Assembly (NCBI RefSeq): GCF_000017305.1
Contig: NC_009664.2
Location: forward strand, 3,660,001 to 3,692,000
From: Kineococcus radiotolerans SRS30216 = ATCC BAA-149
Lineage (GTDB): Bacteria > Actinomycetota > Actinomycetes > Actinomycetales > Kineococcaceae
Reading direction: 5' to 3'
Length of the DNA stretch: 32,000 nt
Shown here: positions 2,093 through 24,752 of the stretch, piece after piece
Position numbering within the stretch: the first letter of the stretch is position 1
How the letters are laid out: each line of letters starts with the position of its first letter
Made by a program: the position numbers and the translations under genes
Notes under the pieces: model-generated
What the model saw: only the letters and a program-made list of their open reading frames with translations
What the model was told of the DNA's origin: nothing
Database searches by the model: none

Positions 2093-3355
2093 ATGTCGGA
2101 GTCGCTGGACCTGAGCAAGCCGCTGGACCCGCCGGCCGTGCCGGCCACCCCGCCTGCCCCGGACCTGCAGCTGACCCCGCCGGCCCCGGTGCCGGTGGTC
2201 GCCGACGAGCAGGCCGAGGGGATGATCCCCCTCGACGAGGCGACGCGGGCGGAGCTGCACCGCAAGGCGCAGGCCTTCGTCGCCGACCTCGCCGCGCAGG
2301 ACCCGCGCAGCCCCGCCTTCCAGAAGAAGGTCGACGACATCACGCGCATGGGGGAGCAGGAGGTCCGCTCCTCGGCGCAGGTCTCCAACCGCATGCTCGA
2401 GCGCCCGCAGTCCAGCCTGGCCGGGGCCAAGGGGCAGAAGGCCTCCGGGCCCGGGGCCGACGCGCAGGTCAAGGTCGCGAGCACCCTGCTGGAGCTGCGC
2501 CAGACCGTCACCGCCCTCGACCCCGGCCGCGCCGACCTCAAGGGCGTGCGGAAGATCCTCGGGATCATCCCCGCGGGCAACAAGATCCAGCGCTACTTCG
2601 AGCGCTACGCCGACGCCCAGTCCCAGCTCGACGCGATCATCAAGGCGCTGGCCAGCGGGCAGGACGAGCTGCGCAAGGACAACGCCTCCATCGAGTCCGA
2701 GAAGCAGAACCTCTGGACGACGATGGGCAAGCTCACCGAGTACTCCACGCTGGCCAAGGCCCTGGACGCGGCGACGGTGGCCAAGATCGACGAGCTGCGG
2801 GCGACGAACCCCCAGGCCGCGGAGGCCCTCACCGCCGACGCGCTGTTCCCGATCCGCCAGCGCCACCAGGACCTGCTGACCCAGCTCGCCGTCAGCGTGC
2901 AGGGCTACCTCGCGCTGGACCTGGTGCGCAAGAACAACATCGAGCTCATCAAGGGCGTCGACCGGGCGCAGACGACGACGGTGGCGGCCCTGCGGACCGC
3001 GGTGATCGTGGCGCAGGCGCTGGCCAACCAGAAGCTCGTGCTCGACCAGATCAACGCGCTGAACACCACGACGAACCAGATGATCCTGTCGACCTCGGAG
3101 ATGCTCAAGCAGCAGACCGGCCAGATCCACGAGCAGGCCTCCACGGCCACGGTGGACGTGGCCACGCTGCAGAAGGCCTTCGACAACGTCTTCGCGACGA
3201 TGGACGCGATCGACACGTTCAAGCAGCAGGCCGTGGTGAGCATGGCGAACACCGTCGACGCCCTCGAGGGGCAGGTGCACCGCTCGCGGTCCTACCTGGA
3301 GCGCGCGCGCAACGGCGAGCAGGGCGCGGGTCCCGCGCTGGAAGGTCCCCGGTGA
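2093..3355 (+). CDS. telA: Toxic anion resistance protein TelA family
   Basis: This is ORF 2048..3355, starting at the ATG at 2093 ([12 protein letters not shown]…). It is a long all-helical protein with the TelA-type layout (…[27 protein letters not shown]…[13 protein letters not shown]…[22 protein letters not shown]…[11 protein letters not shown]…). A Pro-rich N-terminus is common in actinobacterial TelA. Confidence 0.9.
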
Positions 3356-4272
3356 GCTCGGTGGCCTCCTCCCGCGCCGACCAGCGCCCCTCCCGGGCGC
3401 TGAGGCGGGCTGCCGCGGCCGAGGGGAGGGTCGTGCGGCGCGGCCCCGCGCAGGCCCCGCCGGAGCTCGTCTCGCGCCGGCTGCGCAGCCGCACCTGGCG
3501 GGCCGCGAACTCGTGGTGGCTGGCGATCCCGGCGCTGGGGCTGCCGTGGCTGGCGTTCCTCTACATGGGGTTGCGCGGGCGGCGGCCGCAGTGGGTGCTG
3601 GCCGCGCTCGGCTACCTCGTCGCGATGGGCGGGGCCGCCACCGGCCTCGGCCTCGGTCTGGGCCTGGCGACGGGCCACGAGCTGTTGTTCCTCGTGCTGG
3701 GTTCCCTGCTGGGCGCCGGCACCTGGGGATTGGGACTGGTGCACTCGATCATGGCGAACTCGACGTGGCTGCGGATCAAGGCGGCCTTCACGGGCGAACC
3801 CGCCCTGGAGGCCCCGACGACCCCGGCGGTGCCCCCGGCCCCCGCCGACCCGGTGAGCGGGCTGCAGGAGGCCCTGCGCGAGGTCGTGCGCACGGCCAAC
3901 CGCCACGGCGGCCGCCTGCCCGACGGGGCCGTGCCCGCGGTCCGCGAGGTCGAGGACGTGCTGCGGCCGCTGCTGGCCCACGTCGCCCGGCGCGGCGCGG
4001 AGGTCGAGGAGCTGCACAACCTCGAGGCCATCGTCACCGAGTACCTGCCCGGGGCGCTGGAGCACTACCTCGACCTGCCCCCCGACTACGCCGAGACCCA
4101 CCGGCTGCCGTCGGGGCTCACCCCGGCCGAGGAGCTCGTCAACCAGCTGCGGCTGCTGGTGGACGGGTCCCGGGACCTCCAGCGCGCCGTCCACGACCAC
4201 GACGCGCAGAAGCTGTCGGTCCAGGGCCGGTTCCTCGACGCGAAGTTCCGCCGCTCGGACCTGGACCTGTAG
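3352..4272 (+). CDS. XpaC-like membrane protein, paralog 1 (3 predicted TM helices plus a conserved C-terminal helical domain)
   Basis: This is the tail of ORF 2017..4272. GTG at 3352 overlaps the telA stop (GTGA). Predicted TM segments are WWLAIPALGLPWLAFLYMGL, WVLAALGYLVAMGGAATGLGLGLGLA and LLFLVLGSLLGAGTWGLGLV. The C-terminal domain (…YLPGALEHYLDLPPDYAETHR…TPAEELVNQLRLLV…GRFLDAKFRRSDLDL) is shared with the next two genes. The XpaC assignment (5-bromo-4-chloroindolyl phosphate hydrolysis family) rests on the known TelA-XpaC gene pairing and on architecture. Confidence 0.7.
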   Translation: MSSVASSRADQRPSRALRRAAAAEGRVVRRGPAQAPPELVSRRLRSRTWRAANSWWLAIPALGLPWLAFLYMGLRGRRPQWVLAALGYLVAMGGAATGLGLGLGLATGHELLFLVLGSLLGAGTWGLGLVHSIMANSTWLRIKAAFTGEPALEAPTTPAVPPAPADPVSGLQEALREVVRTANRHGGRLPDGAVPAVREVEDVLRPLLAHVARRGAEVEELHNLEAIVTEYLPGALEHYLDLPPDYAETHRLPSGLTPAEELVNQLRLLVDGSRDLQRAVHDHDAQKLSVQGRFLDAKFRRSDLDL

Positions 4273-4281
4273 GAGGACGCG

Positions 4282-5178
4282 GTGGGTGTCGATCTCGGCA
4301 AGGGCGACGGGACGCGGGGCCCGCGGACGCGCGAGCCGCTGCCGGAGGTGACTCCCGCGGTGGCTCCGGAGGTGGCTCCGGAGGTGGCTCCGGAGCGGCG
4401 CCCCGGCGCGACGGTGGCGCGGACGACGCCCCCACCGGCGCCGTACCAGCGGCGGGAGCCGTCGCTCCCGGCGGCGGACGAGGCGCGGGGGCTGAACCCG
4501 CACGCGATGGGGGTGTTCACCACGGCGTGGACGGCGGGGTGGATCGTCGCCTTCGCCACCCACCTCTGGTGGCTGGGCCTGATCATGCTCCTGATGCAGG
4601 GCGCGGTGTTCGGCTACGTCAAGCAGCAGGGCCTGCCGTGGGCCGGGCCCGGGCGCGCGGCCCGCCGCGCCCGGCGGCTGGAGCGCCACCGCGAGCGGGC
4701 GCGCCGCCGCGGCGCGCTCGCCCCGCCCCCGCCCGCGGTCCCGGAGCTGCCCGACCCCGTCACCACCGCCGAGCGCCGGCTGGCCGCGGTGCTCGTCACG
4801 GCCGAGACCTCCGGGGGCCGGATGGACCCCGAGGCGGTCGAGCTGGTCCGCGAGGTCGACCGGCTGCTGCGCCCGCTGCTGGCCCAGGTGCGGACCCGCG
4901 ACGCGGACCCGCAGGTCCGCCACGACCTGGAGACCCTGGCCGGGGAGCACCTGCCGCGCACCGTCGAGGACTACCTCGTCCTGCCCGACGACTACGCCCG
5001 CACCCACCGCACGGCGGCGGGCACGACCCCGGCCGACGAGCTGCGGGCCCAGCTGCAGCTGCTCGTCGAGGGCTGCCGGCAGGTGCGCGACTCCCTCCTC
5101 AGCCGCGACGTGGACCGTCAGCAGCAGCAGAGCCGGTTCCTCGAGGCGAAGTTCCGGCGCTCCGACCTGGACCTGTGA
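4282..5178 (+). CDS. XpaC-like membrane protein, paralog 2
   Basis: This is ORF 4282..5178. The GTG start is preceded by AGGAGG 5 nt upstream. It has two TM helices (VFTTAWTAGWIVAFATHLWWLGLIMLLMQGAVFGYV), an Arg-rich stretch, and a C-terminal domain ending SRFLEAKFRRSDLDL. Confidence 0.8.
   Translation: MGVDLGKGDGTRGPRTREPLPEVTPAVAPEVAPEVAPERRPGATVARTTPPPAPYQRREPSLPAADEARGLNPHAMGVFTTAWTAGWIVAFATHLWWLGLIMLLMQGAVFGYVKQQGLPWAGPGRAARRARRLERHRERARRRGALAPPPPAVPELPDPVTTAERRLAAVLVTAETSGGRMDPEAVELVREVDRLLRPLLAQVRTRDADPQVRHDLETLAGEHLPRTVEDYLVLPDDYARTHRTAAGTTPADELRAQLQLLVEGCRQVRDSLLSRDVDRQQQQSRFLEAKFRRSDLDL
4359..4394 (+). repeat. Perfect 12-nt tandem repeat x3 (GTGGCTCCGGAG), in frame, encoding (V)APE repeats
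   Basis: The identical unit sits at 4359-4370, 4371-4382 and 4383-4394 in the N-terminal disordered region of paralog 2 (…TPAVAPEVAPEVAPE…). Confidence 0.95.
4912..4972 (+). repeat. 61-nt block near-identical (60/61) to 5787-5847 in the next paralog
   Basis: CAGGTCCGCCACGACCTGGAGACCCTGGC[C/G]GGGGAGCACCTGCCGCGCACCGTCGAGGACT appears in both genes and is identical at synonymous sites. The flanking codons diverge. Confidence 0.95.
5106..5155 (+). repeat. 50-nt block identical (50/50) to 5981-6030 in the next paralog
   Basis: CGACGTGGACCGTCAGCAGCAGCAGAGCCGGTTCCTCGAGGCGAAGTTCC occurs in both genes and contains a (CAG)4 run. Confidence 0.95.
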
Positions 5179-5186
5179 GGACGGCC

Positions 5187-6053
5187 GTGGGGATCGAACT
5201 GCGCAAGGGCGACGACGACCGGGACCGGCCCCGTCGGGTGGTCCTGCCCGAGCGCGAGGTCGAGGTCATCGGCCCGAACGACCTCGAACCGCGCCTGGGG
5301 GCGAACCTCCCGGTGCTCGGGTGGGTCTCCGACCCCGTCTTCCAGCTCGTCCGGTTCGTCGGCCTGGGCGGCTGGATCGTCCTCTACGCCGCCCTCGGGC
5401 CGCTGGGCCTGTGGTGGGTGGGGTTCATCGCGATGTGGGCCTGGATCGGGGCGAACGTGGCCTACGAGAACGAGGCCCGGCGGCGGCGCCGGTTGCGGCG
5501 GCACTACCGGCGCGCGATCAAGTACGGGACGCTCGCCCCGGTGCCGGTCCTGCTGCGCCCGGAGGAGGCCGCGCCGGTGGTCCGGGAGCAGCGGCTCGCG
5601 GCGGCGGGGGCGCCCGCCGTCAGCGCGCCGCAGGTGACCGCCGCCGAGAAGGCCCTGGTCGCCACGGTCCGCCGGGTCGACACCGCCGTGGACCGCTTCG
5701 AGCGCACCGACGTCGTCCTCGTCCACGAGGTCGCCGACCTGCTCGGCCCGCTGCTGCTGCGCATCGCCGAGCGGGGCGGGGACCCCCAGGTCCGCCACGA
5801 CCTGGAGACCCTGGCGGGGGAGCACCTGCCGCGCACCGTCGAGGACTTCCTGGCCCTGCCGCCCGACGTCGCCCGCGGCAGCCGCAACGCCGCGGGGTCC
5901 ACCCCGGCGGAGGAGCTGCGCAACCAGCTGCACCTCATGGCCGACGGCTGCCGGCAGCTGCGGGAGGCGGTGCTCTCGGCCGACGTGGACCGTCAGCAGC
6001 AGCAGAGCCGGTTCCTCGAGGCGAAGTTCCGCCGCGGGGACCTGGACCTGTGA
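5187..6053 (+). CDS. XpaC-like membrane protein, paralog 3
   Basis: This is the tail of ORF 3513..6053. The GTG at 5187 is preceded by GAGGA 5 nt upstream. The protein reads VGIELRKGDDD…, then two TM helices (FVGLGGWIVLYAALGPLGLWWVGFIAMWAWIGANV), then ARRRRRLRRHYRR. The C-terminal domain is about 60-70% identical by eye to paralog 2 and ends SRFLEAKFRRGDLDL. Confidence 0.8.
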   Translation: MGIELRKGDDDRDRPRRVVLPEREVEVIGPNDLEPRLGANLPVLGWVSDPVFQLVRFVGLGGWIVLYAALGPLGLWWVGFIAMWAWIGANVAYENEARRRRRLRRHYRRAIKYGTLAPVPVLLRPEEAAPVVREQRLAAAGAPAVSAPQVTAAEKALVATVRRVDTAVDRFERTDVVLVHEVADLLGPLLLRIAERGGDPQVRHDLETLAGEHLPRTVEDFLALPPDVARGSRNAAGSTPAEELRNQLHLMADGCRQLREAVLSADVDRQQQQSRFLEAKFRRGDLDL

Positions 6054-6092: not shown

Positions 6093-6884
6093 GTGACCCT
6101 CGACGTGCAGCTCGTCGGTTCCACGACCCAGATGGCCGTGGTGACCCTGCGTCCCGGGCAGACGCTGTACTGCGAGGCCGGGAAGTTCCTCTTCTCCTCC
6201 GGCGACGTGGTCATGGAGACCAAGCTCACCGCGCCCGGCGGCGGCGAGGGGGGCGGCCTCGGCGGGCTGCTGCGCGGCGCGGCCCAGGCCGGCAAGCGGG
6301 TGCTGGCGGGGGAGTCCTTCGCCTTCCAGCACTTCCACACCCCCGGCGGCGACGGGCTGCTGGGGCTGGCCGGCGTCCTGCCCGGCGAGATGCGCCACCT
6401 GGAGCTGGACGGCTCGACGACGTGGTTCGCCGAGAAGGACGCCTTCGTGGCGGCCGAGGCGGGGGTGCACTTCGACATCGCCTTCTCCGGGGTGGGACAG
6501 GGCCTCATGGGCGGGGAGGGGTTCATCCTCGAGAGGTTCACCGGCCGCGGGTCGCTGCTCATCGCCGGCGCGGGCGACTTCATCGACATCAACCCCGCCG
6601 ACTACGGCGGCACCCTGCGGGTCGACACCGGCTGCGTCGTCGCCTGGGACGACCGCATCACCTACGGCGTCGAGACCGTGGGCCGGCTGAACCGGCAGGG
6701 GATCGTCAGCGCCGTCCTCGGCGGTGAGGGGCTGACCCTGGCGACGCTGCGCGGCGACGGGCGCGTCATCCTGCAGTCGGTCACCATCGAGGCCTTCGCC
6801 AAGGCGCTGGTCAAGAACAGCGCCAAGCCCGACCAGCAGGGCCTCGGGGCCCTGGGCGGGTTGTTCGGGGGCTCCCGCGGCTAG
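6093..6884 (+). CDS. AIM24 family protein (DUF124/TIGR00266-type)
   Basis: This is ORF 6093..6884 with a GTG start after AGGAAGGGGA. Blocks typical of AIM24 proteins include …[18 protein letters not shown]…, [46 protein letters not shown] and [20 protein letters not shown]. Confidence 0.85.
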
Positions 6885-6979
6885 CGGGACCTCCCCGGGC
6901 ACCAACCGGGCCCGGTGATCGTTGGGCCCACCGCAAGCGGTCACACCACCGAACGCAGCGACGAAACGGAGCGAACACC

Positions 6980-7555
6980 ATGGGCGTCAGCCTCAGCAAG
7001 GGCGGCAACGTCTCCCTCACCAAGGAAGCGCCGGGGATGACCAAGGCCGTCATCGGCCTGGGCTGGGACGCGAACTCCTTCACCGGCTCGGAGTTCGACC
7101 TCGACGCGCAGGCCATCATGGTCGGCGCGAACGGCAAGGTCCCCAGTGACGGCTACTTCGTCTTCTTCAACCAGCTGAAGTCCCCCGAGGGCTCCGTGGA
7201 GCACACCGGCGACAACCGCACCGGTGAGGGCGACGGCGACGACGAGAAGATCAACGTCGACCTCAGCCTCGTGCCCGCCGAGATCGAGAAGATCGTCTTC
7301 ACCGTCGCCATCTACGACGCCGACACCCGCAAGCAGTCCTTCGGGCAGGTGCGCAACGGCTTCATCCGCGTGGTCAACAGCGAGGGCGGCACCGAGGTCG
7401 CCCGCTACGACCTCACAGAGGACGCCTCCACCGAGACCGCGATGGTCTTCGGCGAGCTGTACCGCAACGGGTCGGACTGGAAGTTCCGCGCCGTCGGCCA
7501 GGGCTACGCCGACGGTCTGCGCGGCATCGCGACCGACTTCGGCGTCAGCGTCTGA
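6980..7555 (+). CDS. terD: TerD family stress protein (Ca2+-binding TerD domain)
   Basis: This is ORF 6980..7555 with an ATG start. The sequence is canonical: [15 protein letters not shown]…IGLGWD…FDLDAQAIM…[21 protein letters not shown]…[11 protein letters not shown]…FGQV…[10 protein letters not shown]. Confidence 0.95.
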
Positions 7556-7566
7556 CGCACTCCACC

Positions 7567-7596
7567 GCGCACCGTCCCCGGCCGGGGACGGTGCGC
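7567..7596 (+). terminator. Perfect GC-rich hairpin downstream of terD (intrinsic-terminator-like, no U tract)
   Basis: GCGCACCGTCCCC-GGCC-GGGGACGGTGCGC forms a 13-bp perfect stem 12 nt after the terD stop. The missing U tract is common in high-GC actinobacteria but lowers confidence. Confidence 0.5.
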
Positions 7597-7676
7597 GTTC
7601 GCACGTCGTCCGCACGGCGGTGAGTAGGGTTCGAGGTCCGGCCCGCACGGGCTCCGCATGAACAGGAAGCTGACAG

Positions 7677-8819
7677 GTGATCCTCAAGACCTACCGCTGG
7701 TCCTTCGTCGTGACGGCCCTGGGGCTGGTGCTCGCCGCCTGGTACGGGCTGTCGGCCCACCTGGGCATCGGGCAGGCGATCGCCCTCGTCCTGATCCTCT
7801 CGATCCTCGAGATCAGCCTCTCGTTCGACAACGCCGTGGTGAACGCGACCATCCTGGAACGGATGAGCGACTTCTGGCGGAAGATCTTCCTGTCCGTCGG
7901 CATCATCATCGCCGTCTTCGGCATGCGGCTGGTCTTCCCCATCGTGCTGGTCAGCGTGACCGCCGGGCTGGGGCCGATCGAGGTCATCCGCCTCGCCCTC
8001 GAGGGCGGTGACCCGGAGACCCCGGGCACGTACGGCTACGAGCTGCACGAGGCCCACCCCACCATCGCCTCCTTCGGCGGCATGTTCCTGCTCATGCTCT
8101 TCCTCAACTTCATCTTCGGGGAGAAGGAGCACCACTGGCTCGGGCCGATCGAGCGCGCCCTGGAGAAGGTCGGCAAGCTCGACTACGTCCAGGTCATCGT
8201 GGCCGGCGCCGTGCTCCTCGTGGTGGCCGAGACCTTCGCCACCGAGCACGGCCGGACCGTCCTGGCCTCGGGTCTGGCGGGCATCGTGACCTACCTGCTC
8301 GTCAACGGCCTCGGCGAGCTGTTCAACGTCGAGGACCACGTCGAGCACGAGGACCCCGCCACCACCTCGGCCGGCACCACGGCCTCCGGCGTCAACGGCC
8401 CCAGCGGGGCGGCCCGGGCCACCGGCAAGGCGGCGTTCTTCCTCTTCCTGTACCTCGAGGTCCTCGACGCCTCGTTCTCCTTCGACGGGGTCATCGGCGC
8501 CTTCGCCATCACCTCCGACCCGGTGATCATCGCCATCGGCCTCGGCGTCGGCGCCATGTACATCCGGTCGATGACCGTGCACCTGGTGGAGGAGGGCACC
8601 CTCGCCCAGTACCCCTACCTGGAGAACGGCGCCCTGTGGGCCATCGGCGCCCTCGCGGTGATCCTGCTGCTGAGCATCGAGGTGGAGATCCCCGAGGTCG
8701 TCACCGGCCTCATCGGGCTGGCCTTCATCGTGGCCTCGCTCATCAGCTCCATCCGGTACAACCGGGCCCACCCCGAGGAAGCCCACGTCGAGCAGCACCA
8801 CGCGGCGCAGCCGGGCTGA
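7677..8819 (+). CDS. TerC-superfamily integral membrane protein (DUF475-like)
   Basis: This is ORF 7677..8819 with a GTG start. It is polytopic, with two copies of the TerC-type motif (LEISLSFDNAVVNA and LEVLDASFSFDGVIGAF). The N-terminus MILKTYRWSFVVTALGL is typical of actinobacterial DUF475 proteins found next to terD. Confidence 0.88.
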   Translation: MILKTYRWSFVVTALGLVLAAWYGLSAHLGIGQAIALVLILSILEISLSFDNAVVNATILERMSDFWRKIFLSVGIIIAVFGMRLVFPIVLVSVTAGLGPIEVIRLALEGGDPETPGTYGYELHEAHPTIASFGGMFLLMLFLNFIFGEKEHHWLGPIERALEKVGKLDYVQVIVAGAVLLVVAETFATEHGRTVLASGLAGIVTYLLVNGLGELFNVEDHVEHEDPATTSAGTTASGVNGPSGAARATGKAAFFLFLYLEVLDASFSFDGVIGAFAITSDPVIIAIGLGVGAMYIRSMTVHLVEEGTLAQYPYLENGALWAIGALAVILLLSIEVEIPEVVTGLIGLAFIVASLISSIRYNRAHPEEAHVEQHHAAQPG

Positions 8820-8829
8820 TCCGCCGAGC

Positions 8830-8859
8830 GGGACGGAGCGGGGGCGGGGGGTCGGCGGG
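8830..8859 (+). other. Potential G-quadruplex motif in the TerC-like/TerD-like spacer
   Basis: GGG-ACGGAGC-GGGGG-C-GGGGGG-TCGGC-GGG has four G-runs of at least 3 with loops of 7 nt or less. Such motifs are frequent in genomes this GC-rich. Confidence 0.3.
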
Positions 8860-8878
8860 CTGAGCAGGAGGGCGAGCG

Positions 8879-9718
8879 GTGAGCGGCGGGACGAACGCGC
8901 GGCCGGCGGAGGAGGTCCACAACTTCCTCGGCCGGCCCGGGCCGCGGCGCAGCCGGCGCACGCTGGCCGACCACCTGCAGCCCCCCCGCCCCCGCCCGGT
9001 GGTCACCACCCCGGCCCCGCCCGCTCCGCCGCCCGCGGCGCGGGTCGCGCCCCCCGCCCCGGCGCGGGTCGCGGCCCCCGCCCCGGTCGTCGCCGTCGGG
9101 CAGGCCCGGGCCAGCGAGCGCCGGGTCGTCCTCGACGACGAGCGCCCCACCGCCACGATCCCCGCGGCCGAGCGGGCCTCGGGGACCCTGCGCATCACCC
9201 TGCGCTGGGAGCGGCAGGTCACCGCCGCCGGTCTGCACCGTTCCACCGACGTCCACCTCGGGTGCCTCTGGGAGACCCGGGACCGTCACGCGGGTGCGCT
9301 GCAGTCCCTGGGTGACCTGCTCGCCGCCCCCGGCTTCGGCGCCCGCCAGGTCCTGCGGCTGGGACCGCGCAGCGAGCAGGACGGCGAGGAGGTCCTCGCC
9401 GACGCCGCCCACCTGAGCCTGATGCGCCGGATGGTCCTGTACGTCTACGCCGTCGGGCCCAACCCCCCGGACTACCGGCGGCTGGCCCCGCACCTGACCC
9501 TCGCCCGCCGCGGCGGGGGCACCCTGCAGATGTGGGCGGGCGAGCCGCCCCCGGGGGCGCGCACCTGCGTCATCGCCTCCGTGCACGACGTCGGCGGCGA
9601 CCTCGTCGTCCGCCGCGAGGACGAGTTCCTCCCCGGGACCGCGCGCGACGTCGCGCTCGCGTACGGGTTCGACGACCTCGACTGGAACTCCGAGGGCACC
9701 GTCCCGCGTCCTTCCTGA
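8879..9718 (+). CDS. Degenerate TerD-like domain protein with a Pro/Ala-rich N-terminal extension
   Basis: This is ORF 8879..9718 with a GTG start. Residues from about 95 to 279 follow the TerD fold pattern (…LRITLRWER…DVHLGCLWE…VLRLGPRSEQDGEEVLADAAHL…MVLYVYAV…CVIASVHDVGGDLVVRREDEFL…ALAYGF). The [13 protein letters not shown] calcium motif is replaced by GPRSEQDGEE. Confidence 0.7.
   Translation: MSGGTNARPAEEVHNFLGRPGPRRSRRTLADHLQPPRPRPVVTTPAPPAPPPAARVAPPAPARVAAPAPVVAVGQARASERRVVLDDERPTATIPAAERASGTLRITLRWERQVTAAGLHRSTDVHLGCLWETRDRHAGALQSLGDLLAAPGFGARQVLRLGPRSEQDGEEVLADAAHLSLMRRMVLYVYAVGPNPPDYRRLAPHLTLARRGGGTLQMWAGEPPPGARTCVIASVHDVGGDLVVRREDEFLPGTARDVALAYGFDDLDWNSEGTVPRPS
9037..9084 (+). repeat. 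24-nt tandem repeat x2 (23/24 identical), in frame
   Basis: GGCGCGGGTCGCG[C/G]CCCCCGCCCC sits at 9037-9060 and 9061-9084 and encodes ARVAPPAP/ARVAAPAP in the disordered N-terminus of the TerD-like protein. Confidence 0.9.
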
Positions 9719-9752
9719 GCACACCCCATCCACCACGAGAGAGGGGCCCACC

Positions 9753-10331
9753 GTGGCCGTCAGTCTGAACAAGGGCCAGAAGCTGTCGCTGGAGAAGTCC
9801 GGCGGGGGCAGCCTCACCCGCGTCTTCATGGGCCTGGGCTGGGACGCCGTGGCCAAGGGCCTGTTCCGCAAGAAGGCCGTCGACATCGACCTCGACGCGA
9901 GCGTGCTGCTCTTCGACGCGCAGCGCCGGCTGGTCGACGAGGTGTGGTTCCAGCAGCTGCGCAGCAAGGACGGGTCCGTCGTCCACAGCGGCGACAACCT
10001 CACCGGCGAGGGGGAGGGCGACGACGAGGTCGTCCACATCGACCTGCCCGCGGTGCCGGCCCAGGTGCAGACCCTCGTCTTCACGGTGTCCAGCTTCACC
10101 GGCCAGGACTTCTCCCAGGTCCAGAACGCCGTCTGCCGCCTCGTCGACGCCGCCCAGCCGCAGCCGGTCGAGCTCGCCCGCTACGAGCTGTCCGACGCCG
10201 GACCGCACACCGCGCAGATCATGGCCAAGCTCACCCGCGAGGGCAGCGGCTGGGCCATGACGGCCATCGGCGCACCCGCCCAGGGCCGCCACATCCGCGA
10301 CCTCCGCGACGCCGTCGCCGCCCACGTCTGA
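9753..10331 (+). CDS. terD: TerD family stress protein (second canonical copy)
   Basis: This is ORF 9753..10331 with a GTG start after GAGAGAGGGG. The sequence reads MAVSLNKGQKLSLEK…GLGWD…VDIDLDASVLLFD…HSGDNLTGEGEGDDEVVHIDL…LVFTVSSF…WAMTAIG. Confidence 0.93.
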   Translation: MAVSLNKGQKLSLEKSGGGSLTRVFMGLGWDAVAKGLFRKKAVDIDLDASVLLFDAQRRLVDEVWFQQLRSKDGSVVHSGDNLTGEGEGDDEVVHIDLPAVPAQVQTLVFTVSSFTGQDFSQVQNAVCRLVDAAQPQPVELARYELSDAGPHTAQIMAKLTREGSGWAMTAIGAPAQGRHIRDLRDAVAAHV

Positions 10332-10346
10332 GCCGCTGAGCCCAGC

Positions 10347-11564
10347 GTGCGGCACTTCAGCACCCTCGACGCGGAGCGGGAGCGGGACCTCTTCCTCCAC
10401 CCCCCGCGACCGGTCGACGTCACCGCCGGGCGCGACGAGCTCGCCGTCGCGCTCGGCGCCACGCTGTACTGCCCCGCGACCCGCGAGCGCCTGGCGGGGG
10501 ACCTGCTGCGGCTGGCCCGCCGCGGGGTCCTCTCGGCCGTGGCGTGCCTGGAGGACTCCGTCCCCGACCACCGCGTCGCCGAGGCCGAGGAGATCCTCGT
10601 CCGCGAGCTCGCCGGCCTGGCCCGCACCCCCGAGTGGCGCGACGGGGCGCCCCTCATGCTCTTCGTGCGGGCCCGGACCCCGCAGCAGCTGCTGCGCGTC
10701 GTCGAGCGCAGCGGCGTCGGGCTGGACTGCCTGACGGGGTTCGTCGTCCCCAAGTTCGGGGGCGGCGGGCAGCCCTCCCCGGACGAGTGGCTGGAGGCGG
10801 TCAGCACCGCCTCCGAGCGGGCGGGGCGGCGGATGTGGGCCATGCCGGTCCTGGAGAGCCGCGACGTCGCGCACCTGGAGACCCGCCGCGAGGCGCTGTT
10901 CGCCATCCGCGACGTGCTCGACGCCCACCGCGAGGTCGTCCTCGCCGTGCGCACCGGGGCCACCGACCTCTCCGCCGCCTACGGGCTGCGCCGGCCCCGG
11001 GGGGCCACCGTGTGGGACGTCCGGGTCGTGGCCGACGTCCTCGGCGACGTCATCAACGTCCTGGGCCGCGCCGACGGCAGCGGCTACCCCATCACCGCCC
11101 CCGTGTGGGAGCACTTCTCCTCCGGGGAACGGGTCTTCCGCACCTCCCTGGCGGCCCGGCCGTTCGCGGAGTCCGGGTCGGTGGGCCTGCGCGAGCAGCT
11201 CATCACCGACGACCTCGACGGCCTCGTGCGCGAGCTCGTCCTCGACCGCGTCAACGGGTTGCAGGGCAAGACCGTCATCCACCCCTCCCACGTCGCCGTC
11301 GTCCACGCCACGTCGGTGGTCACGCACGAGGACTTCTGCGACGCCTCCGACGTCGTGGCCCAGCACGGGGGCGGGGCGATGGCCTCGACCTACCGGAACA
11401 AGATGAACGAGGCCGGCCCCCACCGGGTCTGGGCCGAGCGCGTCCTGGCCCGCGCCCGCGCCTTCGGAGTGGCCCGCGAGGACACCACCTACGTCCACCT
11501 GCTCCAGGCGCAGGACGACGCCTGGCGCGCCTTCACCCGCTCACCGGAAGGGGCCCGCGCGTGA
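10347..11564 (+). CDS. HpcH/HpaI aldolase / citrate-lyase-beta-like TIM-barrel C-C lyase (Ter-associated type)
   Basis: This is ORF 10347..11564 with a GTG start. Blocks typical of the Ter-linked HpcH/CitE-like family include GATLYCPATR, ACLEDSV, FVVPKF, AMPVLES, RTGATDLSAAYGLRR and GKTVIHPSHV. It lies directly downstream of terD and upstream of the PRTases, as in the published Ter neighbourhood. Confidence 0.8.
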   Translation: MRHFSTLDAERERDLFLHPPRPVDVTAGRDELAVALGATLYCPATRERLAGDLLRLARRGVLSAVACLEDSVPDHRVAEAEEILVRELAGLARTPEWRDGAPLMLFVRARTPQQLLRVVERSGVGLDCLTGFVVPKFGGGGQPSPDEWLEAVSTASERAGRRMWAMPVLESRDVAHLETRREALFAIRDVLDAHREVVLAVRTGATDLSAAYGLRRPRGATVWDVRVVADVLGDVINVLGRADGSGYPITAPVWEHFSSGERVFRTSLAARPFAESGSVGLREQLITDDLDGLVRELVLDRVNGLQGKTVIHPSHVAVVHATSVVTHEDFCDASDVVAQHGGGAMASTYRNKMNEAGPHRVWAERVLARARAFGVAREDTTYVHLLQAQDDAWRAFTRSPEGARA

Positions 11565-12943
11565 ACCGCGTCGTCCCGCACGCCCCCGCCCGCACCCGGT
11601 GGGTCGCCGAGCGGCTCGGCGTGCACCTGGACGGGCCCGCCGGCGCCGACGGCCTCACCGTCCACGACCTGCTCGGCCTCGCCCTGCGGCGCAACCCCCG
11701 GCGCGCGCACCTGCTGGTCAGCGAGGTCCTCGGCAAGCACGTGCCCACCGACCCGCGGCTGGTGCGGGCGGCCGGGGCGCGCCTGGGCGGTCTCGTCGCC
11801 GACGTCCTCGGGGTGCCCGACGCCCCCGGGCCCGACGCCGGCACCTGGCGGGCGGCGCTGGCCGGTGACGAGCTCGCCACCGCCGCGGTGGCCGCCGGCG
11901 TGCAGCGCGCCCCGGCCCGCCCCGACGCCCTCGTCGTCGGCTACGCCGAGACCGCCACCGGGCTCGGGCAGACCGTCGCCGACGCCCTCGGCTGCGCCGG
12001 GCTGCACTCCACCCGCCGCGCGGTGCCCGGCGCCCTCGACTACGCCGGTTTCGAGGAGGAGCACTCCCACGCCACCGGGCACCGGCTGCTGCCGCGCGAC
12101 CCCGCCGTCCTCGCCGCCCTCGCCGACCCGACCGCCCCGGTCGTCCTCGTCGACGACGAGCTCTCCACGGGACGCACCGTCGCGAACACCCTGCGGGCGC
12201 TGCACGCCCGCTCCCCGCACCGGCACTACGTGGTGGCCGGTCTGGTCGACGTGCGCGCCGAGGCCGACCGGGCCCGCCTCGACGGGCTCGGCGCGGAGCT
12301 GGGGGCCCGCGTGGACGTGGTCAGCCTGGCGCGCGGCGTCGTGGACCTGCCCCCCGACGTGCTCGCCCGCGGGGCGGACCTCGTCGCGGGGGTGGCTCCG
12401 GTCGTCCCCGCGGCGGGTGCTCCCGCCGACGCGGTGCCGGTGCGGGTGGACTGGCCGAGCGGGGTCCCCACCACCGCCCGCTTCGGCACCGCGCCCGCCC
12501 ACGCGGAGCTGCTCGCCGGCGCCGACCTCGTGCGGCACCTGCTGCCGGAGGTGCGCACCGACGCCGAGGTCCTCGTCCTGGCCTCCGAGGAGCTCCTGCA
12601 CGCCCCGCTGGCCGTGGCCTGCCAGCTCGCCGCCCGCCACCCCGGGCGGGTGCGGTTCTCCTCCACGACGCGCTCGCCGGTGCTGGCCGTCGACGACCCC
12701 GGGTACGCGGTGCGCAGCTCGGTGGCCTTCACCTCCCACGACCCGGCCGTGGACGGCCCGGGGACCCGCTACGCCCACAACGCGGCCCGCGAGGGGGGCT
12801 GGGACGCGATCGTCCTCGTCGTCGACTCCGCCTCCGCGCCCACCGCGCTGCACGCCCCGGACGGCGTCCTCGCGGCGCTGGCCCCGCTCGCGTCGCGGCT
12901 GCTGCTCGTCACCCTGCCCGCCGACACCTGGAGCCCCCGGTGA
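11561..12943 (+). CDS. Phosphoribosyltransferase (Ter-associated PRTase_2-type with a C-terminal TRSP-like domain)
   Basis: This is the tail of ORF 10544..12943. GTG at 11561 overlaps the upstream stop (GTGA). The PRPP-binding loop is VVLVDDELSTGRT. The N-terminal HLLVSEVLGKHVP and GYAETATGLG blocks are typical of this family. Confidence 0.82.
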   Translation: MNRVVPHAPARTRWVAERLGVHLDGPAGADGLTVHDLLGLALRRNPRRAHLLVSEVLGKHVPTDPRLVRAAGARLGGLVADVLGVPDAPGPDAGTWRAALAGDELATAAVAAGVQRAPARPDALVVGYAETATGLGQTVADALGCAGLHSTRRAVPGALDYAGFEEEHSHATGHRLLPRDPAVLAALADPTAPVVLVDDELSTGRTVANTLRALHARSPHRHYVVAGLVDVRAEADRARLDGLGAELGARVDVVSLARGVVDLPPDVLARGADLVAGVAPVVPAAGAPADAVPVRVDWPSGVPTTARFGTAPAHAELLAGADLVRHLLPEVRTDAEVLVLASEELLHAPLAVACQLAARHPGRVRFSSTTRSPVLAVDDPGYAVRSSVAFTSHDPAVDGPGTRYAHNAAREGGWDAIVLVVDSASAPTALHAPDGVLAALAPLASRLLLVTLPADTWSPR

Positions 12944-14097
12944 CCTCGTCCACGGAACTGCCCACGCCCCTGTCGGGCCCGCGGTTCTCCTCCTACCTGC
13001 CCGACGAGGTGAGCTGGCTGCTCAGCGACCTGTCCGGGGTGGAGCTGGAGGCCCCGGCCGAGGAGCGCGAGGAGGCCATCCAGAGCGGCGGGGCGCACTA
13101 CGCGGAGTCGCTGCCGGTGGAGTACCAGCCGAGCGCGGAGTACCAGCGGCTGTTCGCCGACGCCCTGGACCGCACGGCCCGCCGGGTGGCCCTCGGGGTG
13201 GGGGTGGTGGCCGAGCTGCTGCGGGCCGAGCGGGGGGAGGAGCTCCTGCTCGCGTCCCTGGCCCGGGCCGGGACCCCGGTGGGGATCCTGCTGCGCCGCT
13301 GGGGGCTGCGCGCCGGGCTGCACTGGCCGCACGTCGCGGTGTCCATCGTGCGCGGGCGCGGCATCGACGAGGTCGCGCTGCGCTGGATCGCCGCCCACCA
13401 CGACCCCTCCGCGGTCGTCTTCGTCGACGGCTGGACCGGCAAGGGGGCGATCGTGCGGGAGCTGTCCGCCGCGCTGGCCCGCTTCCCCGGCTTCAGCGAC
13501 GACCTCGCCGTGCTGGCCGACCCCGGCCACTGCGTGCGCACCTTCGGCACCCGCGAGGACTACCTCATCCCCTCGGCGTGCCTGAACTCCACGGTGTCGG
13601 GGCTGGTGAGCCGGACGGTCCTGAACGAGCGGCTGCTGGCCCCGGGCCGGTTCCACGGGGCGAAGTTCTACGCCGACCTCGCCCCCGTCGACGCGTCGAA
13701 CCGGTTCCTGGACGTGGTGAGCTCCTGGTTCGACGACGTCGCCCCGGAGGTCCCGGCGGCGGTGGCGGTGGTGCGCGCGCAGGACCGCACGGCCACCTTC
13801 ACCGGCTGGGCCGAGGTCGAGCGGGTCAGCGAGCACTACGACATCGGCGACGTGAACCTCGTCAAACCCGGGGTGGGGGAGACGACCCGGGTGCTGCTGC
13901 GCCGGGTCCCGTGGCGGGTCCTGGTGCGCCCGGAGGCGGAGCTGCGCCACCCCGACGACCTCGCCCACGTGCGGTTGCTGGCCGCGCAGCGCGGGGTGGT
14001 CGTGGAGGAGGTGCCGGGGCTGTCCTACTCCGCGATCGGGTTGATCCACCCGCGATTCACCCGGGGGGCGACCGGCGCCGACGGGCGGGCGGTGTGA
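12940..14097 (+). CDS. StiP-type protein (annotated in databases as cysteine protease StiP; PRTase_1 fold, probable C-terminal PELOTA-like domain)
   Basis: This is ORF 12940..14097; its GTG overlaps the upstream stop. N-terminal blocks SSYLPDEVSWLL, EEREEAIQSGGAHYAESLP, YQRLF, LARAGTPVGILL and VFVDGWTGKGAI match my memory of StiP-family proteins encoded in Ter clusters. Confidence 0.75.
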   Translation: MTSSTELPTPLSGPRFSSYLPDEVSWLLSDLSGVELEAPAEEREEAIQSGGAHYAESLPVEYQPSAEYQRLFADALDRTARRVALGVGVVAELLRAERGEELLLASLARAGTPVGILLRRWGLRAGLHWPHVAVSIVRGRGIDEVALRWIAAHHDPSAVVFVDGWTGKGAIVRELSAALARFPGFSDDLAVLADPGHCVRTFGTREDYLIPSACLNSTVSGLVSRTVLNERLLAPGRFHGAKFYADLAPVDASNRFLDVVSSWFDDVAPEVPAAVAVVRAQDRTATFTGWAEVERVSEHYDIGDVNLVKPGVGETTRVLLRRVPWRVLVRPEAELRHPDDLAHVRLLAAQRGVVVEEVPGLSYSAIGLIHPRFTRGATGADGRAV

Positions 14098-14921
14098 GCG
14101 GGGGGAACGGCCTGCTGGCCGCCAGCGACCTCGACCAGACGCTGGTGTTCTCCGCCCGCTCGGCCGGGGTGGACGTGGCCGGGCTCGTCGAGGTCGAGGA
14201 GTACGAGGGGCGGGTCATCTCCTACGTGACCCCCGCGGCGTGGGCGCTGCTCGGGGACCTGGTGGCGTCGGGGCGCTTCCTGCCCGTCACCACGCGGACC
14301 CCGGAGCAGTACGCGCGGATCCGCTGGCCGGGAGCTGCGCCGCGGTACGCGGTGTGCGCCAACGGCGGGGTGCTGCTGGTCGACGGCGCCCCGGACGCGG
14401 CGTGGGCGCAGGTGGTGCGGGACCGGTTGTCCGGCTGCGCCCCCCTGGCGCAGGTGCACGCGGAGCTGGCGCGGCTGGCCGGGGAGCTCGTCACCGCGGT
14501 CCCGGGCTCGGAGGACCCCGCGGTGCGCAGCGTCCCGGGGTTGTTCGGCTACCTCGTCCTGCGCGAGGGGCAGCGCCCGGAGCTGGAGGGGACCCGCCTC
14601 GGGGACCTCACCGTGCGGCTGGACGGCTGGGGCTACGCGGTGTCCCTGCAGGGCCGCAAGCTCTACGCCGTCCCGCGCCCGCTGACGAAGTCGGCGGCCG
14701 TCGCGGAGGTGGTGTCCCGTCGCGGCGCCACGGGCTTCGTCTCCGCCGGGGACTCGCTGCTCGACGTGGACCTGCTCGTCGCCGCCCGCGCGGCGCGCCG
14801 CCCCCGCCACGGGGAGCTGCTGCGGGCCGGCTGGGAGCACCCCGGGGTGGAGCTCACCGCCGCGACCGGCGCGGCGGCGGGGGAGGAGATCGCGCGCTGG
14901 CTGGCCGGCGCCGTCGGCTGA
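14094..14921 (+). CDS. HAD-superfamily phosphatase (Ter-associated)
   Basis: This is the tail of ORF 11865..14921. GTG at 14094 overlaps the upstream stop. HAD motif I is ASDLDQTLVF (DxDxT), motif II is PVTTRT, and motif IV-like is SAGDSLLDVDLL. Confidence 0.8.
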   Translation: MSGGNGLLAASDLDQTLVFSARSAGVDVAGLVEVEEYEGRVISYVTPAAWALLGDLVASGRFLPVTTRTPEQYARIRWPGAAPRYAVCANGGVLLVDGAPDAAWAQVVRDRLSGCAPLAQVHAELARLAGELVTAVPGSEDPAVRSVPGLFGYLVLREGQRPELEGTRLGDLTVRLDGWGYAVSLQGRKLYAVPRPLTKSAAVAEVVSRRGATGFVSAGDSLLDVDLLVAARAARRPRHGELLRAGWEHPGVELTAATGAAAGEEIARWLAGAVG

Positions 14922-14928
14922 CGCGCCC

Positions 14929-15480
14929 CTACCGGCCCGCCCGCGCGGGGTCCTCGCGCGCGCGGTGGCGCAGGGCGGCGAGCGCCCCCGCCGCGGCGAG
15001 CAGCCACGTCGCGGCCCGGGCCGCCACGGCCACCGGGTCGCCCGCCGGCCCCGGTGGCAGGACGAGCGCCTCCAGCGCCGCCCCGAGCGGGACGAGGAGC
15101 CGCGCGAGCAGGCCGAGGGGGCCGGGGTCGCGCACCCGGGACCCGAGGAACCCCAGCACCGGGCAGACCAGCAGGCTCGCCGCCCACCAGGTCGCGTCCC
15201 CGCGCAGCGTGGCCGCCGGCGGCACCGCGCGCAGCAGCGCGTCGGCGAGGGCGAACGCGAGCAGGGCCGCGCTCGTCGCCAGCCACCCGGCCGCGGCCGC
15301 GCGCCGCGGCGTCCGCACGAGCGCACCGGTGAGGACGGCGAGCCCCGCCCAGGCCCACCCCGCGTTGAGCAGGGAACCGCCGAACCGGGCCCCCGGGGAG
15401 GAGGAGAGGTCGAGCGCGGCGTTCAGGGCGCCGAAGCCCGTGGCGAGCGCGAGGACGACCGGCGGTCGGGAGGAGGGCAC
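14929..15480 (-). CDS. Hypothetical polytopic membrane protein
   Basis: This is ORF 14929..15480. It has 5-6 hydrophobic Ala/Leu/Gly-rich segments and a strong G/C preference at codon position 3. I recognise no family. The GTG start directly abuts GGAGG, so the SD spacing is poor and the start is uncertain. Confidence 0.5.
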   Translation of the reverse strand: MPSSRPPVVLALATGFGALNAALDLSSSPGARFGGSLLNAGWAWAGLAVLTGALVRTPRRAAAAGWLATSAALLAFALADALLRAVPPAATLRGDATWWAASLLVCPVLGFLGSRVRDPGPLGLLARLLVPLGAALEALVLPPGPAGDPVAVAARAATWLLAAAGALAALRHRAREDPARAGR

Positions 15481-15552
15481 CCTCCGATGCTGGCCACGAC
15501 CGGGGACGGGCGGGGACGGTGGGCGCCGTCGGTGCAGGATCGGCGGACCCTT

Positions 15553-15594
15553 CTCCCGGGACCTCCACCGGAGCTCCCGGGACCTCCACCGGAG
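15553..15594. repeat. Perfect 21-nt tandem direct repeat x2 in an intergenic spacer
   Basis: CTCCCGGGACCTCCACCGGAG sits at 15553-15573 and 15574-15594. Each unit contains the palindrome TCCCGGGA and the inverted repeat CTCC-ACC-GGAG. Confidence 0.95.
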
Positions 15595-23408: not shown

Positions 23409-24752
23409 ATGGACCGCCAGCAGGAGTTCGTGCTGCGGACGCTGGAGGAGCGGGACATCCGCTTCGTCCGGCTCTGGTTCACCGACGTCATCGGCACGTT
23501 GAAGTCGGTGGCGATCGCGCCCGCCGAGCTCGAGGGGGCCTTCGGCGAGGGGATCGGGTTCGACGGCTCCGCCATCGAGGGCCTGTCCCGGGTGTCGGAG
23601 TCCGACATGCTCCTCAAGCCCGAGCCCTCCACGTTCCAGGTGCTGCCGTGGCGCGCCAGCGACGAGCACCAGGGCACGGCCCGCATCTTCTGCGACATCC
23701 TCACCCCCGACGGCCAGCCGGCGCGCTCGGACCCGCGCTTCGTGCTCAAGCGGGCCCTGGACCGCGCCGCGCAGCGCGGCTACACCTTCTACACCCACCC
23801 CGAGATCGAGTTCTACCTCTTCAAGACCCCCCTCGAACGCGGTGCCGTGCCCGAGCCGGTCGACTACGTCGGCTACTTCGACAACCACCCCGGCAGCACC
23901 ACCACCGACTTCCGCCGCACGGCCATCTCGACGCTGGAGAGCATGGGCATCTCCGTCGAGTTCAGCCACCACGAGGGCGGGCCGGGGCAGAACGAGATCG
24001 ACCTGCGCTACGCCGACGCCCTCACCACCGCGGACAACATCATGACCTTCCGCACCGTCCTCAAGGAGGTGGCGCGCGACCAGGACGTCTACGCCAGCTT
24101 CATGCCCAAGCCCCTCGCCGGGGAGCCGGGGTCGGGGATGCACACCCACCTCTCGCTCTTCGACGGCGACGCCAACGCCTTCTACGAGGCCGGTGCGGAG
24201 TACCAGCTGTCCCGCACCGGGCGGCAGTTCATCGCCGGCATCCTGCGCCACGCCGCCGAGATCACCGCGGTGACCAACCAGTTCATCAACTCCTACAAGC
24301 GGTTGTGGTCCGGCGGGGAGGCCCCCAGCTACGTCTGCTGGGGCCACAACAACCGCTCCGCGCTGGTCCGGGTCCCGATGTACAAGCCCTCCAAGGGCCA
24401 GTCGGTGCGCATCGAGTACCGCGCGCTGGACTCCGCGGCCAACCCCTACCTCGCCTTCGCGCTGCTGCTCAGCGCCGGGCTGAAGGGCATCGAGGAGGGC
24501 TACGACCTGCCCGACGGCGCCGAGGACGACGTGTGGTCGCTCACCGACGCCGAGCGCCGCTCGATGGGCATCGAGCCGCTGCCGCAGAGCCTCGAGCACG
24601 CCATCGCCGTCATGGAGCGCTCCGAGCTGGTCGCCGAGACCCTCGGCGAGGGCGTCTTCGACTACTTCCTGCGCAACAAGCGCCAGGAGTGGGCCGACTA
24701 CCGCGCGCAGGTCACGCCCTTCGAGCTCCAGCGGTACCTGCCCCTGCTGTGA
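23409..24752 (+). CDS. glnA2: Glutamine synthetase type I, GlnA2-like
   Basis: This is ORF 23409..24752 with an ATG start. The sequence reads …IRFVRLWFTDVIGTLKSVAI…FDGSAIEG…EFYLF…HHEGGPGQNEIDLRY…SFMPKP…GSGMHTHLSLF…NSYKRL…APSYVCWGHNNRSALVRVP…[18 protein letters not shown]…. The length and position upstream of glnE match actinobacterial GlnA2. Confidence 0.93.
   Translation: MDRQQEFVLRTLEERDIRFVRLWFTDVIGTLKSVAIAPAELEGAFGEGIGFDGSAIEGLSRVSESDMLLKPEPSTFQVLPWRASDEHQGTARIFCDILTPDGQPARSDPRFVLKRALDRAAQRGYTFYTHPEIEFYLFKTPLERGAVPEPVDYVGYFDNHPGSTTTDFRRTAISTLESMGISVEFSHHEGGPGQNEIDLRYADALTTADNIMTFRTVLKEVARDQDVYASFMPKPLAGEPGSGMHTHLSLFDGDANAFYEAGAEYQLSRTGRQFIAGILRHAAEITAVTNQFINSYKRLWSGGEAPSYVCWGHNNRSALVRVPMYKPSKGQSVRIEYRALDSAANPYLAFALLLSAGLKGIEEGYDLPDGAEDDVWSLTDAERRSMGIEPLPQSLEHAIAVMERSELVAETLGEGVFDYFLRNKRQEWADYRAQVTPFELQRYLPLL

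Follow-up and report, generated by a model that had tools for sequence, protein, structure and literature searches.

Three tandem genes directly downstream of telA in Kineococcus radiotolerans SRS30216 (= ATCC BAA-149), here called p1, p2 and p3, encode membrane-anchored paralogs with a common C-terminal domain of about 140 amino acids (aa), and sequence profiles indicate that this domain is a large conserved family of telA neighbors that lacks a Pfam match and is present in several phyla. The stretch analyzed, hereafter the window, covers 32,000 nucleotides (nt) of contig NC_009664.2 (positions 3,660,001 to 3,692,000 of the forward strand), and coordinates refer to positions within it unless a locus is named. 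The explanation that we favor, with moderate confidence, is that p1, p2 and p3 are tandem telA-linked paralogs that arose by stepwise duplication, that the near-identical DNA tracts in two of them reflect peptide motifs with occasional gene conversion, and that the proteins would serve as membrane-anchored adaptors of TelA. The main yield is that a large family of TelA-partner domains without a Pfam match can now be defined: the gene beside telA appears as one conserved helical domain on varied membrane anchors in Actinomycetota, Pseudomonadota, Chloroflexota and Bacillota. This makes the domain a concrete candidate partner of TelA, in a family that present Pfam-based annotation leaves as “hypothetical”.

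The telA-linked paralogs and their domain family

The features of the array are as follows:

2093-3355, plus strand: telA, toxic anion resistance protein (Pfam PF05816, TelA)
3352-4272, plus strand: p1 (306 aa), with a multi-span hydrophobic region at aa 56-130 and the C-terminal TelA-partner domain (open reading frame and hydropathy)
3850-4269, plus strand: TelA-partner domain of p1 (alignments A1 and A3)
4258-4293, plus strand: p1/p2 junction, with the conserved ...DLDL codons, stop, GGAGGA Shine-Dalgarno sequence and GTG start (MGVDL...)
4282-5178, plus strand: p2 (298 aa), with a predicted transmembrane (TM) hairpin and a four-helix C-terminal domain (AlphaFold2 model)
4342-4395, plus strand: 12-nt tandem repeat (4.5 copies, 88% matches) encoding PEVA repeats in the variable N-terminus of p2
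4756-5175, plus strand: TelA-partner domain of p2 (alignment and AlphaFold2 model)
5164-5198, plus strand: p2/p3 junction, homologous to the p1/p2 junction, with stop, GAGGA and GTG start (MGIEL...)
5187-6053, plus strand: p3 (288 aa), with a TM hairpin at aa 51-91, an Arg-rich stretch and the C-terminal domain (hydropathy)
5631-6050, plus strand: TelA-partner domain of p3 (alignment and profile search)

The telA product matches PF05816 over the full length of the profile (expect value (E) 6e-92, residues 74-404, profile positions 2-332 of 332). Its start is likely the ATG at 2093, with GAGGGGGA placed 7 nt 5' of it, and a GTG at 2048 is also open. The GTG start of p1 overlaps the telA stop codon (GTGA), and the spacers between p1 and p2 and between p2 and p3 are only 9 and 8 nt long, with GGAGGA and GAGGA before the respective GTG starts. 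The two stop-spacer-start junctions, which the original prediction had called homologous, are indeed so, and both carry a Shine-Dalgarno sequence and a GTG start; the N-terminal MGV(D/E)L motif is kept in the p2/p3-type orthologs. A scan for intrinsic terminators detected no candidate on the plus strand between 1500 and 7100; the only terminator-like site lies on the minus strand inside telA, in a number within the shuffle expectation. A sigma-70 promoter scan gave no promoter-like site.

The identity between the proteins is 39% for p1-p2, 34% for p1-p3 and 52% for p2-p3, and is concentrated in the C-terminal 140 aa or so, which in all three paralogs end in RFL(D/E)AKFRR(S/G)DLDL. A repeat finder recovered a 282-nt unit in three copies (69, 100 and 82% identity) at spacings of 906 and 875 nt. 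The three open reading frames (ORFs), the tandem triplication with a spacing of about 0.9 kb and the common ending are thus all borne out, and the shared domain, first put at about 130 aa, extends over about 140 aa in the alignment.

The AlphaFold2 model of p2, based on 66 homologs (mean predicted local distance difference test score, pLDDT, 82), contains a disordered Pro-rich N-terminus, a TM hairpin at residues 73-116, an Arg-rich helix at 125-144 and a four-helix bundle at 159-295, which is modeled with a pLDDT above 90 and has a last helix of 46 residues. As part of the favored explanation, and held with the same moderate confidence, p2 and p3 are predicted to have a TM hairpin and p1 to have three to four spans. 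The stretch that follows the TM region is Arg-rich and basic, which suggests a cytoplasmic C-terminal domain. The length of the N-terminus varies greatly among the p2/p3-type orthologs, which range from 237 to 428 aa in total.

Searches of reference collections gave little for these proteins. Foldseek matched the p2 model in the PDB only to designed or generic helical bundles and to FAT-like four-helix bundles (best E 0.06), a sequence-profile search of the PDB gave nothing below E 0.18, and scans of p1-p3 against NCBIfam and PADLOC gave no match. All orthologs are named “hypothetical protein” in RefSeq. The family PF27171, listed in precomputed annotation for two p1 orthologs, was not recovered in a Pfam scan of both proteins at an E limit of 10.

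It is very improbable that one or two of the three genes have lost their function and are duplicates in decay. The N-terminal regions are strongly diverged and of low complexity, and the ratio of nonsynonymous to synonymous divergence (dN/dS) in the p3 domain exceeds those of p1 and p2. However, in eight genomes of the subclade none of the three ORFs is interrupted, and their starts, TM hairpins and C-terminal motifs are conserved; the dN/dS between orthologs is below 0.5 in every domain (0.24-0.46, with p3 at 0.46), and the p2 ORF has a coding-like GC content at third codon positions (GC3) of 0.97. For the N-terminal and TM halves, the dN/dS is 0.5-0.65, a value that is partly inflated by poor alignment.

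To define the family, the C-terminal domain was aligned in two sets, A1 with 12 members and A3 with 146 members. The profile of about 140 aa, seeded with the three window domains, carries the signature E(H/Y)LP...LP...TP...L..QL...RFLxxKF. Among 1.84 billion representative proteins, it matched 1338 at E<=1e-3, of which 619 at E<=1e-10. The Pfam copy searched contained no family over the domain in the window proteins or in the A1 and A3 members scanned. The N-terminal modules to which the domain is fused include plain TM segments, PspC (7 of 146 members), LRR, vWA and DUF805.

What the members share consistently is proximity to telA. Of the 57 related genome loci in which the upstream sequence was long enough, 56 have telA directly upstream of the domain-encoding gene. 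The pairing is also seen in Sphingomonad-like contigs (L070, L071), on a Sphaerotilus plasmid, where a vWA gene is placed between telA and the gene for the domain (E 4e-34), at an LRR fusion from Anaerolineae (L076) and on a soil contig that also has TerB (L079).

In the Bacillota, the telA neighbors match the domain more weakly as single sequences, while the profile-to-profile match is clear. The partners downstream of telA, including the DUF3974 (PF13120) proteins of the B. cereus group, gave an hhalign probability of 94% (E 1.4e-7), and the 213-252 aa proteins located just upstream of telA gave 96.7% (E 3.9e-10). The Bacillota partners without a PF10112 match comprise these DUF3974 proteins of the B. 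cereus group and, in other Bacillota, TM proteins of 213-324 aa; all adjoin telA directly, and in their C-terminal halves they show homology to the window domain (94-97%). They differ from the window proteins in that they have other N-terminal modules (DUF3974 and others), are single-copy and share only about 17% identity with them. In the B. cereus group, the genes directly downstream of telA (4132-4965 in L062 and 3636-4478 in L095) encode proteins annotated only with DUF3974, which covers their N-terminal 126 aa, and it is their unannotated C-terminal halves that are homologous to the window domain.

Growth of the array and the near-identical tracts

The triplication, which had been suspected to be unusual, is indeed so in the copy survey. 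The Frankiaceae-type loci (n=37) contain telA, a single copy of about 172 aa without a TM segment, and then terD; this copy has the same domain (41-58% identity) in the same place between telA and terD as the array in the window, from which it differs in copy number and in the missing TM segment. Most Kineococcus have two copies, one of the p1 type and one of the p3 type. Three copies were found only in the window, in seven related genomes (L001-L007) and in a fragmented assembly of K. vitellinus. In a neighbor-joining tree of the domain, a p1 clade extends across all Kineococcus and has the Frankiaceae sequences as its nearest neighbors, a p2 clade is confined to the three-copy genomes, and a p3 clade takes in the second copy of the two-copy species. 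The clade pattern and the copy survey together indicate that the array grew stepwise from one to two to three copies, a conclusion that we hold with moderate confidence as part of the favored explanation. The last step would have been a tandem duplication of about 0.9 kb, which copied the second gene in one Kineococcus subclade. Since the orthology of p1, p2 and p3 is preserved, there has been no wholesale concerted evolution. The presence of one, two or three copies in related lineages offers a natural series for the effect of extra anchors.

A few database entries in this survey carry labels that do not fit their content. A contig labelled “MAG: Janthinobacterium lividum” (L018) has a Kineococcus-type telA-p1-p3-AIM24-terD locus, with a TelA that is 90% identical, and is probably misbinned. 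Protein P0058 is labelled Paenibacillus sp. TRM 82003, yet is of the Kineococcus type. The NCBI protein P0024 (446 aa) appears to be a frameshifted call that joins a p2 ortholog, out-of-frame sequence and part of a p3 ortholog.

The original prediction drew attention to two near-identical blocks in p2 and p3 and ascribed them to short-tract gene conversion or, alternatively, to constraint at the nucleotide level. Their coordinates and identities are exactly as claimed:

4912-4972, plus strand: block 1 in p2, encoding QVRHDLETLAGEHLPRTVED; 60/61 identical to 5787-5847
5787-5847, plus strand: block 1 in p3
5106-5155, plus strand: block 2 in p2, encoding DVDRQQQQSRFLEAKF; 50/50 identical to 5981-6030
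5981-6030, plus strand: block 2 in p3

The blocks encode the peptide motifs DPQVRHDLETLAGEHLPRTVEDY/F and DVDRQQQQSRFLEAKFRR, which vary little or not at all across the p2/p3-type genes of the entire genus. The GC3 in the window is 0.984, and Asp, Glu, His, Gln, Lys, Phe and similar residues use effectively one codon. In the 111 nt of the blocks, about 18 codons are free to vary, each with a chance of about 0.5 of a match. As a control, we compared p2 of one genome with p3 of another, pairs that have the same duplication age and no shared recent conversion. A GENECONV-style run-length test on the single pair was set aside, because constraint varies along the gene and the cross-genome pairs would therefore score as significant too. 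Exact runs of 15-40 nt are present at the same places in the cross-genome p2-p3 pairs, compared with 51 and 31 nt in the window and 53 and 34 nt in L007.

The synonymous divergence between p2 and p3 of the window is non-uniform, with codon identity falling from 35/36 within the blocks to 36/53 in the remainder of the domain (Fisher p=0.0008), but much of this contrast has an ordinary cause. For blocks 1 and 2, the codon identity expected at codon-usage equilibrium is 0.69 and 0.80. The observed synonymous codon identities are 0.76 and 0.83-0.85 for orthologs (0.75-0.77 in the rest of the domain), 0.77 and 0.83 for cross-genome paralogs, 0.84 and 0.89 for same-genome paralogs, and 0.95 and 1.0 for the window pair. 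Because the cross-genome paralogs are as similar in the blocks as the orthologs are, and both are near the codon-usage equilibrium, most of the patchiness is ordinary. We read the near-identical tracts as mainly the footprint of two invariant peptide motifs under a GC3 of 98%. The case carries a caution: at such a GC3, a conserved peptide motif nearly suffices to produce long identical tracts between paralogs.

The same numbers speak against conservation of the blocks at the nucleotide level, such as an RNA structure or a protein-binding site within the coding sequence. The synonymous sites are identical within the window, as this alternative would have it, but between species they vary as freely inside the blocks as elsewhere in the domain, the slight surplus of identity in block 2 fits the abundance of single-codon amino acids there, and no nucleotide positions are kept beyond the needs of the peptide motifs and codon usage. 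We consider this alternative hardly credible.

Beyond the motifs, there is an excess of identity within genomes that is local to the blocks. The window p2-p3 pair has 3 differences in the blocks, compared with 8-19 in the other 63 pairs (2 versus 3-12 in block 1), which corresponds to a binomial p=0.003 at the cross-genome rate. The differences in the blocks sum to 88 over the same-genome pairs (genome-label permutation p=0.005). Outside the blocks there is no such excess (codon identity 0.69 versus 0.70), which argues against a genome-specific codon preference. The p2 and p3 genes of the window are reciprocal nearest neighbors in both blocks, and in block 2 the p3 gene is nearer to the p2 genes (1-4 differences) than to the other p3 genes (4-6). 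Both genes of the window use CGT, a rare codon for Arg, at one position (third base at 5118 in p2), and 0/14 of the p2 and p3 genes of the other seven three-copy genomes do so. This codon is the only private shared synonymous variant of the window pair, compared with 0-2 in the cross-genome pairs and 5 in L007, a count that is weakly informative since there are few informative sites, these are near saturation, and sister genomes (L005/L006; L001-L003) mask each other. In L007, an independent and longer stretch is homogenised, with 16 differences between the blocks compared with 25-38 in its cross-genome pairs.

The claim of short-tract conversion thus stands in part: the within-genome excess in the blocks bears it out, and the patchiness itself is mainly due to invariant motifs and codon bias. 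Judged from these alignments, short-tract conversion seeded in the conserved motifs probably does occur, also in the window lineage, as a second-order effect. A possible but doubtful alternative is that there was no conversion, and that purifying selection on the two motifs, codon bias and chance at the 18 or so free synonymous sites account for the tracts. The invariance of the motifs, the extreme GC3, the cross-genome runs of up to 40 nt, the equal codon identity of cross-genome paralogs and orthologs, and a private-variant count similar to that of some cross-genome pairs all fit this alternative. It does not readily explain why the window pair falls below the range of the 63 other pairs, why the permutation and binomial tests detect an excess that is missing outside the blocks, or why L007 has a homogenised stretch of its own.

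Between the blocks, at domain column 119 (5091-5093 in p2 and 5966-5968 in p3), both window proteins have a Ser where most relatives have an Ala. A Ser is also present in p2 of L002 and L003, and the window codons, AGC and TCG, are unrelated. This is a parallel amino-acid change beyond the reach of conversion, and it may reflect co-adaptation of the paralogs.

Relation to XpaC and a proposed role

The three genes had been predicted to be XpaC-like. XpaC (PF10112, Halogen_Hydrol) is the partner of TelA in the pairs xpaC-yaaN of B. subtilis, lmo1966-lmo1967 of Listeria and xpaC-telA of Enterococcus, and its architecture consists of TM segments at the N-terminus and a cytoplasmic helical domain after them. 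We searched Pfam-A with hmmscan at E limits of 1 for p1-p3, 10 for the A1 members and 0.01 for the A3 members (0.01-10 overall). There was no match to PF10112 in p1-p3, in the 158 relatives (12 in A1 and 146 in A3) or in 14 telA-neighbor proteins from Bacillota, a Betaproteobacterium and metagenome contigs. The XpaC label for p1-p3 is thus unsupported at the level tested, that of sequence against profile.

Neither the window TelA nor a Bacillus TelA recovered a Firmicute xpaC-telA pair in a tblastn search of plasmids, and the TelA partners found in a Bacillus TelA homolog search with inspection of neighborhoods were all without PF10112. A scan of viral contigs for telA gave one proteobacterial telA, at a contig end, and a scan of metagenomes yielded 27 loci, every one of which had the same Bacillus-type subtype of TelA.

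It is nevertheless conceivable, if on the whole doubtful, that p1-p3 are very divergent true members of XpaC/Halogen_Hydrol, beyond the reach of a sequence-to-hidden-Markov-model comparison, that share the TelA-linked role of XpaC. Both are encoded beside telA in one operon, as is seen in the window from the p1 start at 3352 and the telA end at 3355, their architectures are similar, and the Bacillota proteins next to telA, including the upstream ones of 213-252 aa, are homologous to the domain by hhalign. On the other hand, PF10112 is missing from p1-p3, the 158 family members and the 14 neighbors at E limits of 0.01-10. UniProt names are inconsistent, with sister orthologs called “DUF4129 domain-containing” (names being a lead only), and RefSeq has “hypothetical protein” throughout. 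Hydrolysis of 5-bromo-4-chloroindolyl phosphate is the biochemical phenotype associated with XpaC, and the helical-bundle model of p2 gave no enzyme-like Foldseek match. The gene order also differs, with telA first and three copies after it in the window and a single XpaC in the known pairs.

XpaC is a small membrane protein whose biochemistry is not known, and in Firmicutes the XpaC-TelA operon belongs to cell-envelope stress regulons of the LiaSR/CesSR/VraSR type, where the removal of XpaC changes the binding of daptomycin and the lipid domains only in the presence of TelA (PMC6811118, PMC12791056, PMC10269926). An adaptor model for the window proteins is consistent with this knowledge.

We propose that p1, p2 and p3 are co-expressed with TelA, which is soluble and helical, and that they may be its adaptors in the membrane, either as alternatives to one another or as heteromers, and dock or regulate it on the cytoplasmic side. 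Through their diverged N-terminal and TM parts, they would provide the ter stress response with inputs that differ in localisation or sensing, and occasional short-tract conversion seeded in the motifs would make the p2 and p3 of the window more alike than cross-genome paralogs are. A docking or regulatory module is suggested because the array is translationally coupled to telA, the adjacency is near-universal, the cytoplasmic domain is conserved and the membrane or sensor module is exchangeable. The adaptor role is likely on the combined grounds of gene neighborhood and domain architecture.

Small membrane-anchored proteins with a cytoplasmic helical part are also known from the phage-shock response, where adaptors of the PspC type are thought to recruit a soluble all-helical effector. 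The comparison is an analogy only: seven members of the TelA-partner family are fused to a PspC domain, the window proteins have no homology to PspC, and the presumed effector is TelA, not PspA. The module itself is of a known kind, and the Kineococcus triplication is a variant of it that is specific to the lineage.

Several points weigh against the favored explanation. The adaptor role is argued from gene neighborhood and domain architecture, and the predicted fold of the C-terminal domain is a generic helical bundle without an informative PDB match. The telA link is not absolute, since a PspC-fused member (L078) has no telA within 4 kb and a p1 ortholog of K. indalonis T90 (contig L024, 2936-4084) has none in 3.6 kb upstream. 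The latter, which is the sole exception among the 57 loci and adjoins a divergently oriented CTP synthase gene (pyrG), could stem from a rearrangement or from faulty assembly. The signal of conversion is modest: it includes only the one private shared variant in the window, the blocks were chosen post hoc, and the synonymous sites are near codon-usage equilibrium between species, which lowers the power. Furthermore, p2 and p3 form clean orthologous clades, so that any conversion must be rare and short.

A more far-reaching version, which we think unlikely as a whole, is that the four-helix bundle is a phylum-spanning TelA-docking domain for interchangeable modules, that TelA may have an elongated helical fold like that of ClyA, and that the Kineococcus proteins form a heteromeric platform whose TelA-binding motifs are kept in step by conversion. 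If true, TelA would be coupled to TM hairpin, multi-TM, PspC, LRR, vWA or DUF805 modules.

TelA and the surrounding ter cluster

TelA and the ter genes are widespread and have been implicated in resistance to tellurite, bacteriocins, daptomycin and phages; to our knowledge, no mechanism is known for this resistance. The ter stress cluster in the window is complete and has the three paralogs at its head; its remainder (about 6093-14097, plus strand, from Pfam matches) is co-oriented with telA-p1-p2-p3:

6093-6884, plus strand: AIM24 (Pfam)
6980-7555, plus strand: first TerD (Pfam)
7677-8819, plus strand: TerC/DUF475 (Pfam)
8879-9718, plus strand: coding-like ORF without a Pfam match, between terC and the second terD
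9753-10331, plus strand: second TerD (Pfam)
10347-11564, plus strand: TIM-barrel C-C lyase (C-C_Bond_Lyase, Pfam)
11561-12943, plus strand: PRTase_2+TRSP (Pfam)
12940-14097, plus strand: StiP+PELOTA (Pfam)

TerD and TerC are thus co-located with a biosynthetic module of PRTase, C-C lyase and StiP. Anantharaman, Iyer and Aravind reportedly described in 2012 ter clusters in which TerD and TerC occur with PRTase, TIM-barrel lyase and StiP modules, and the window likewise has TelA, AIM24, two TerD, TerC/DUF475, C-C_Bond_Lyase, PRTase_2+TRSP and StiP+PELOTA.

The AlphaFold2 model of TelA is all-alpha and of low confidence (pLDDT 63), with very long helices that include ones of 78 and 110 residues. 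No sequence relative of TelA was found in the PDB. Foldseek returned for the model a long and consistent run of weak matches to alpha-pore-forming toxins of the ClyA family (ClyA, AhlB/C, SmhB, MakE, XaxB and Hbl-B; E 2e-3 to 6e-2, TM-score 0.2-0.44).

The window has the high GC content of an actinobacterium (0.67-0.80), and its best protein matches are all from Kineococcus. Two further coding-like ORFs without a Pfam match, at 14100-14918 and 14918-15580, follow the StiP/PELOTA gene. Farther downstream on the plus strand are genes for a glutamine synthetase (23409-24752) and the GlnE adenylyltransferase (about 24761-27940), an ordinary housekeeping context, and between these and the ter cluster are genes for an alpha-amylase-family protein, a pyridoxal phosphate-dependent enzyme and a ROK regulator.

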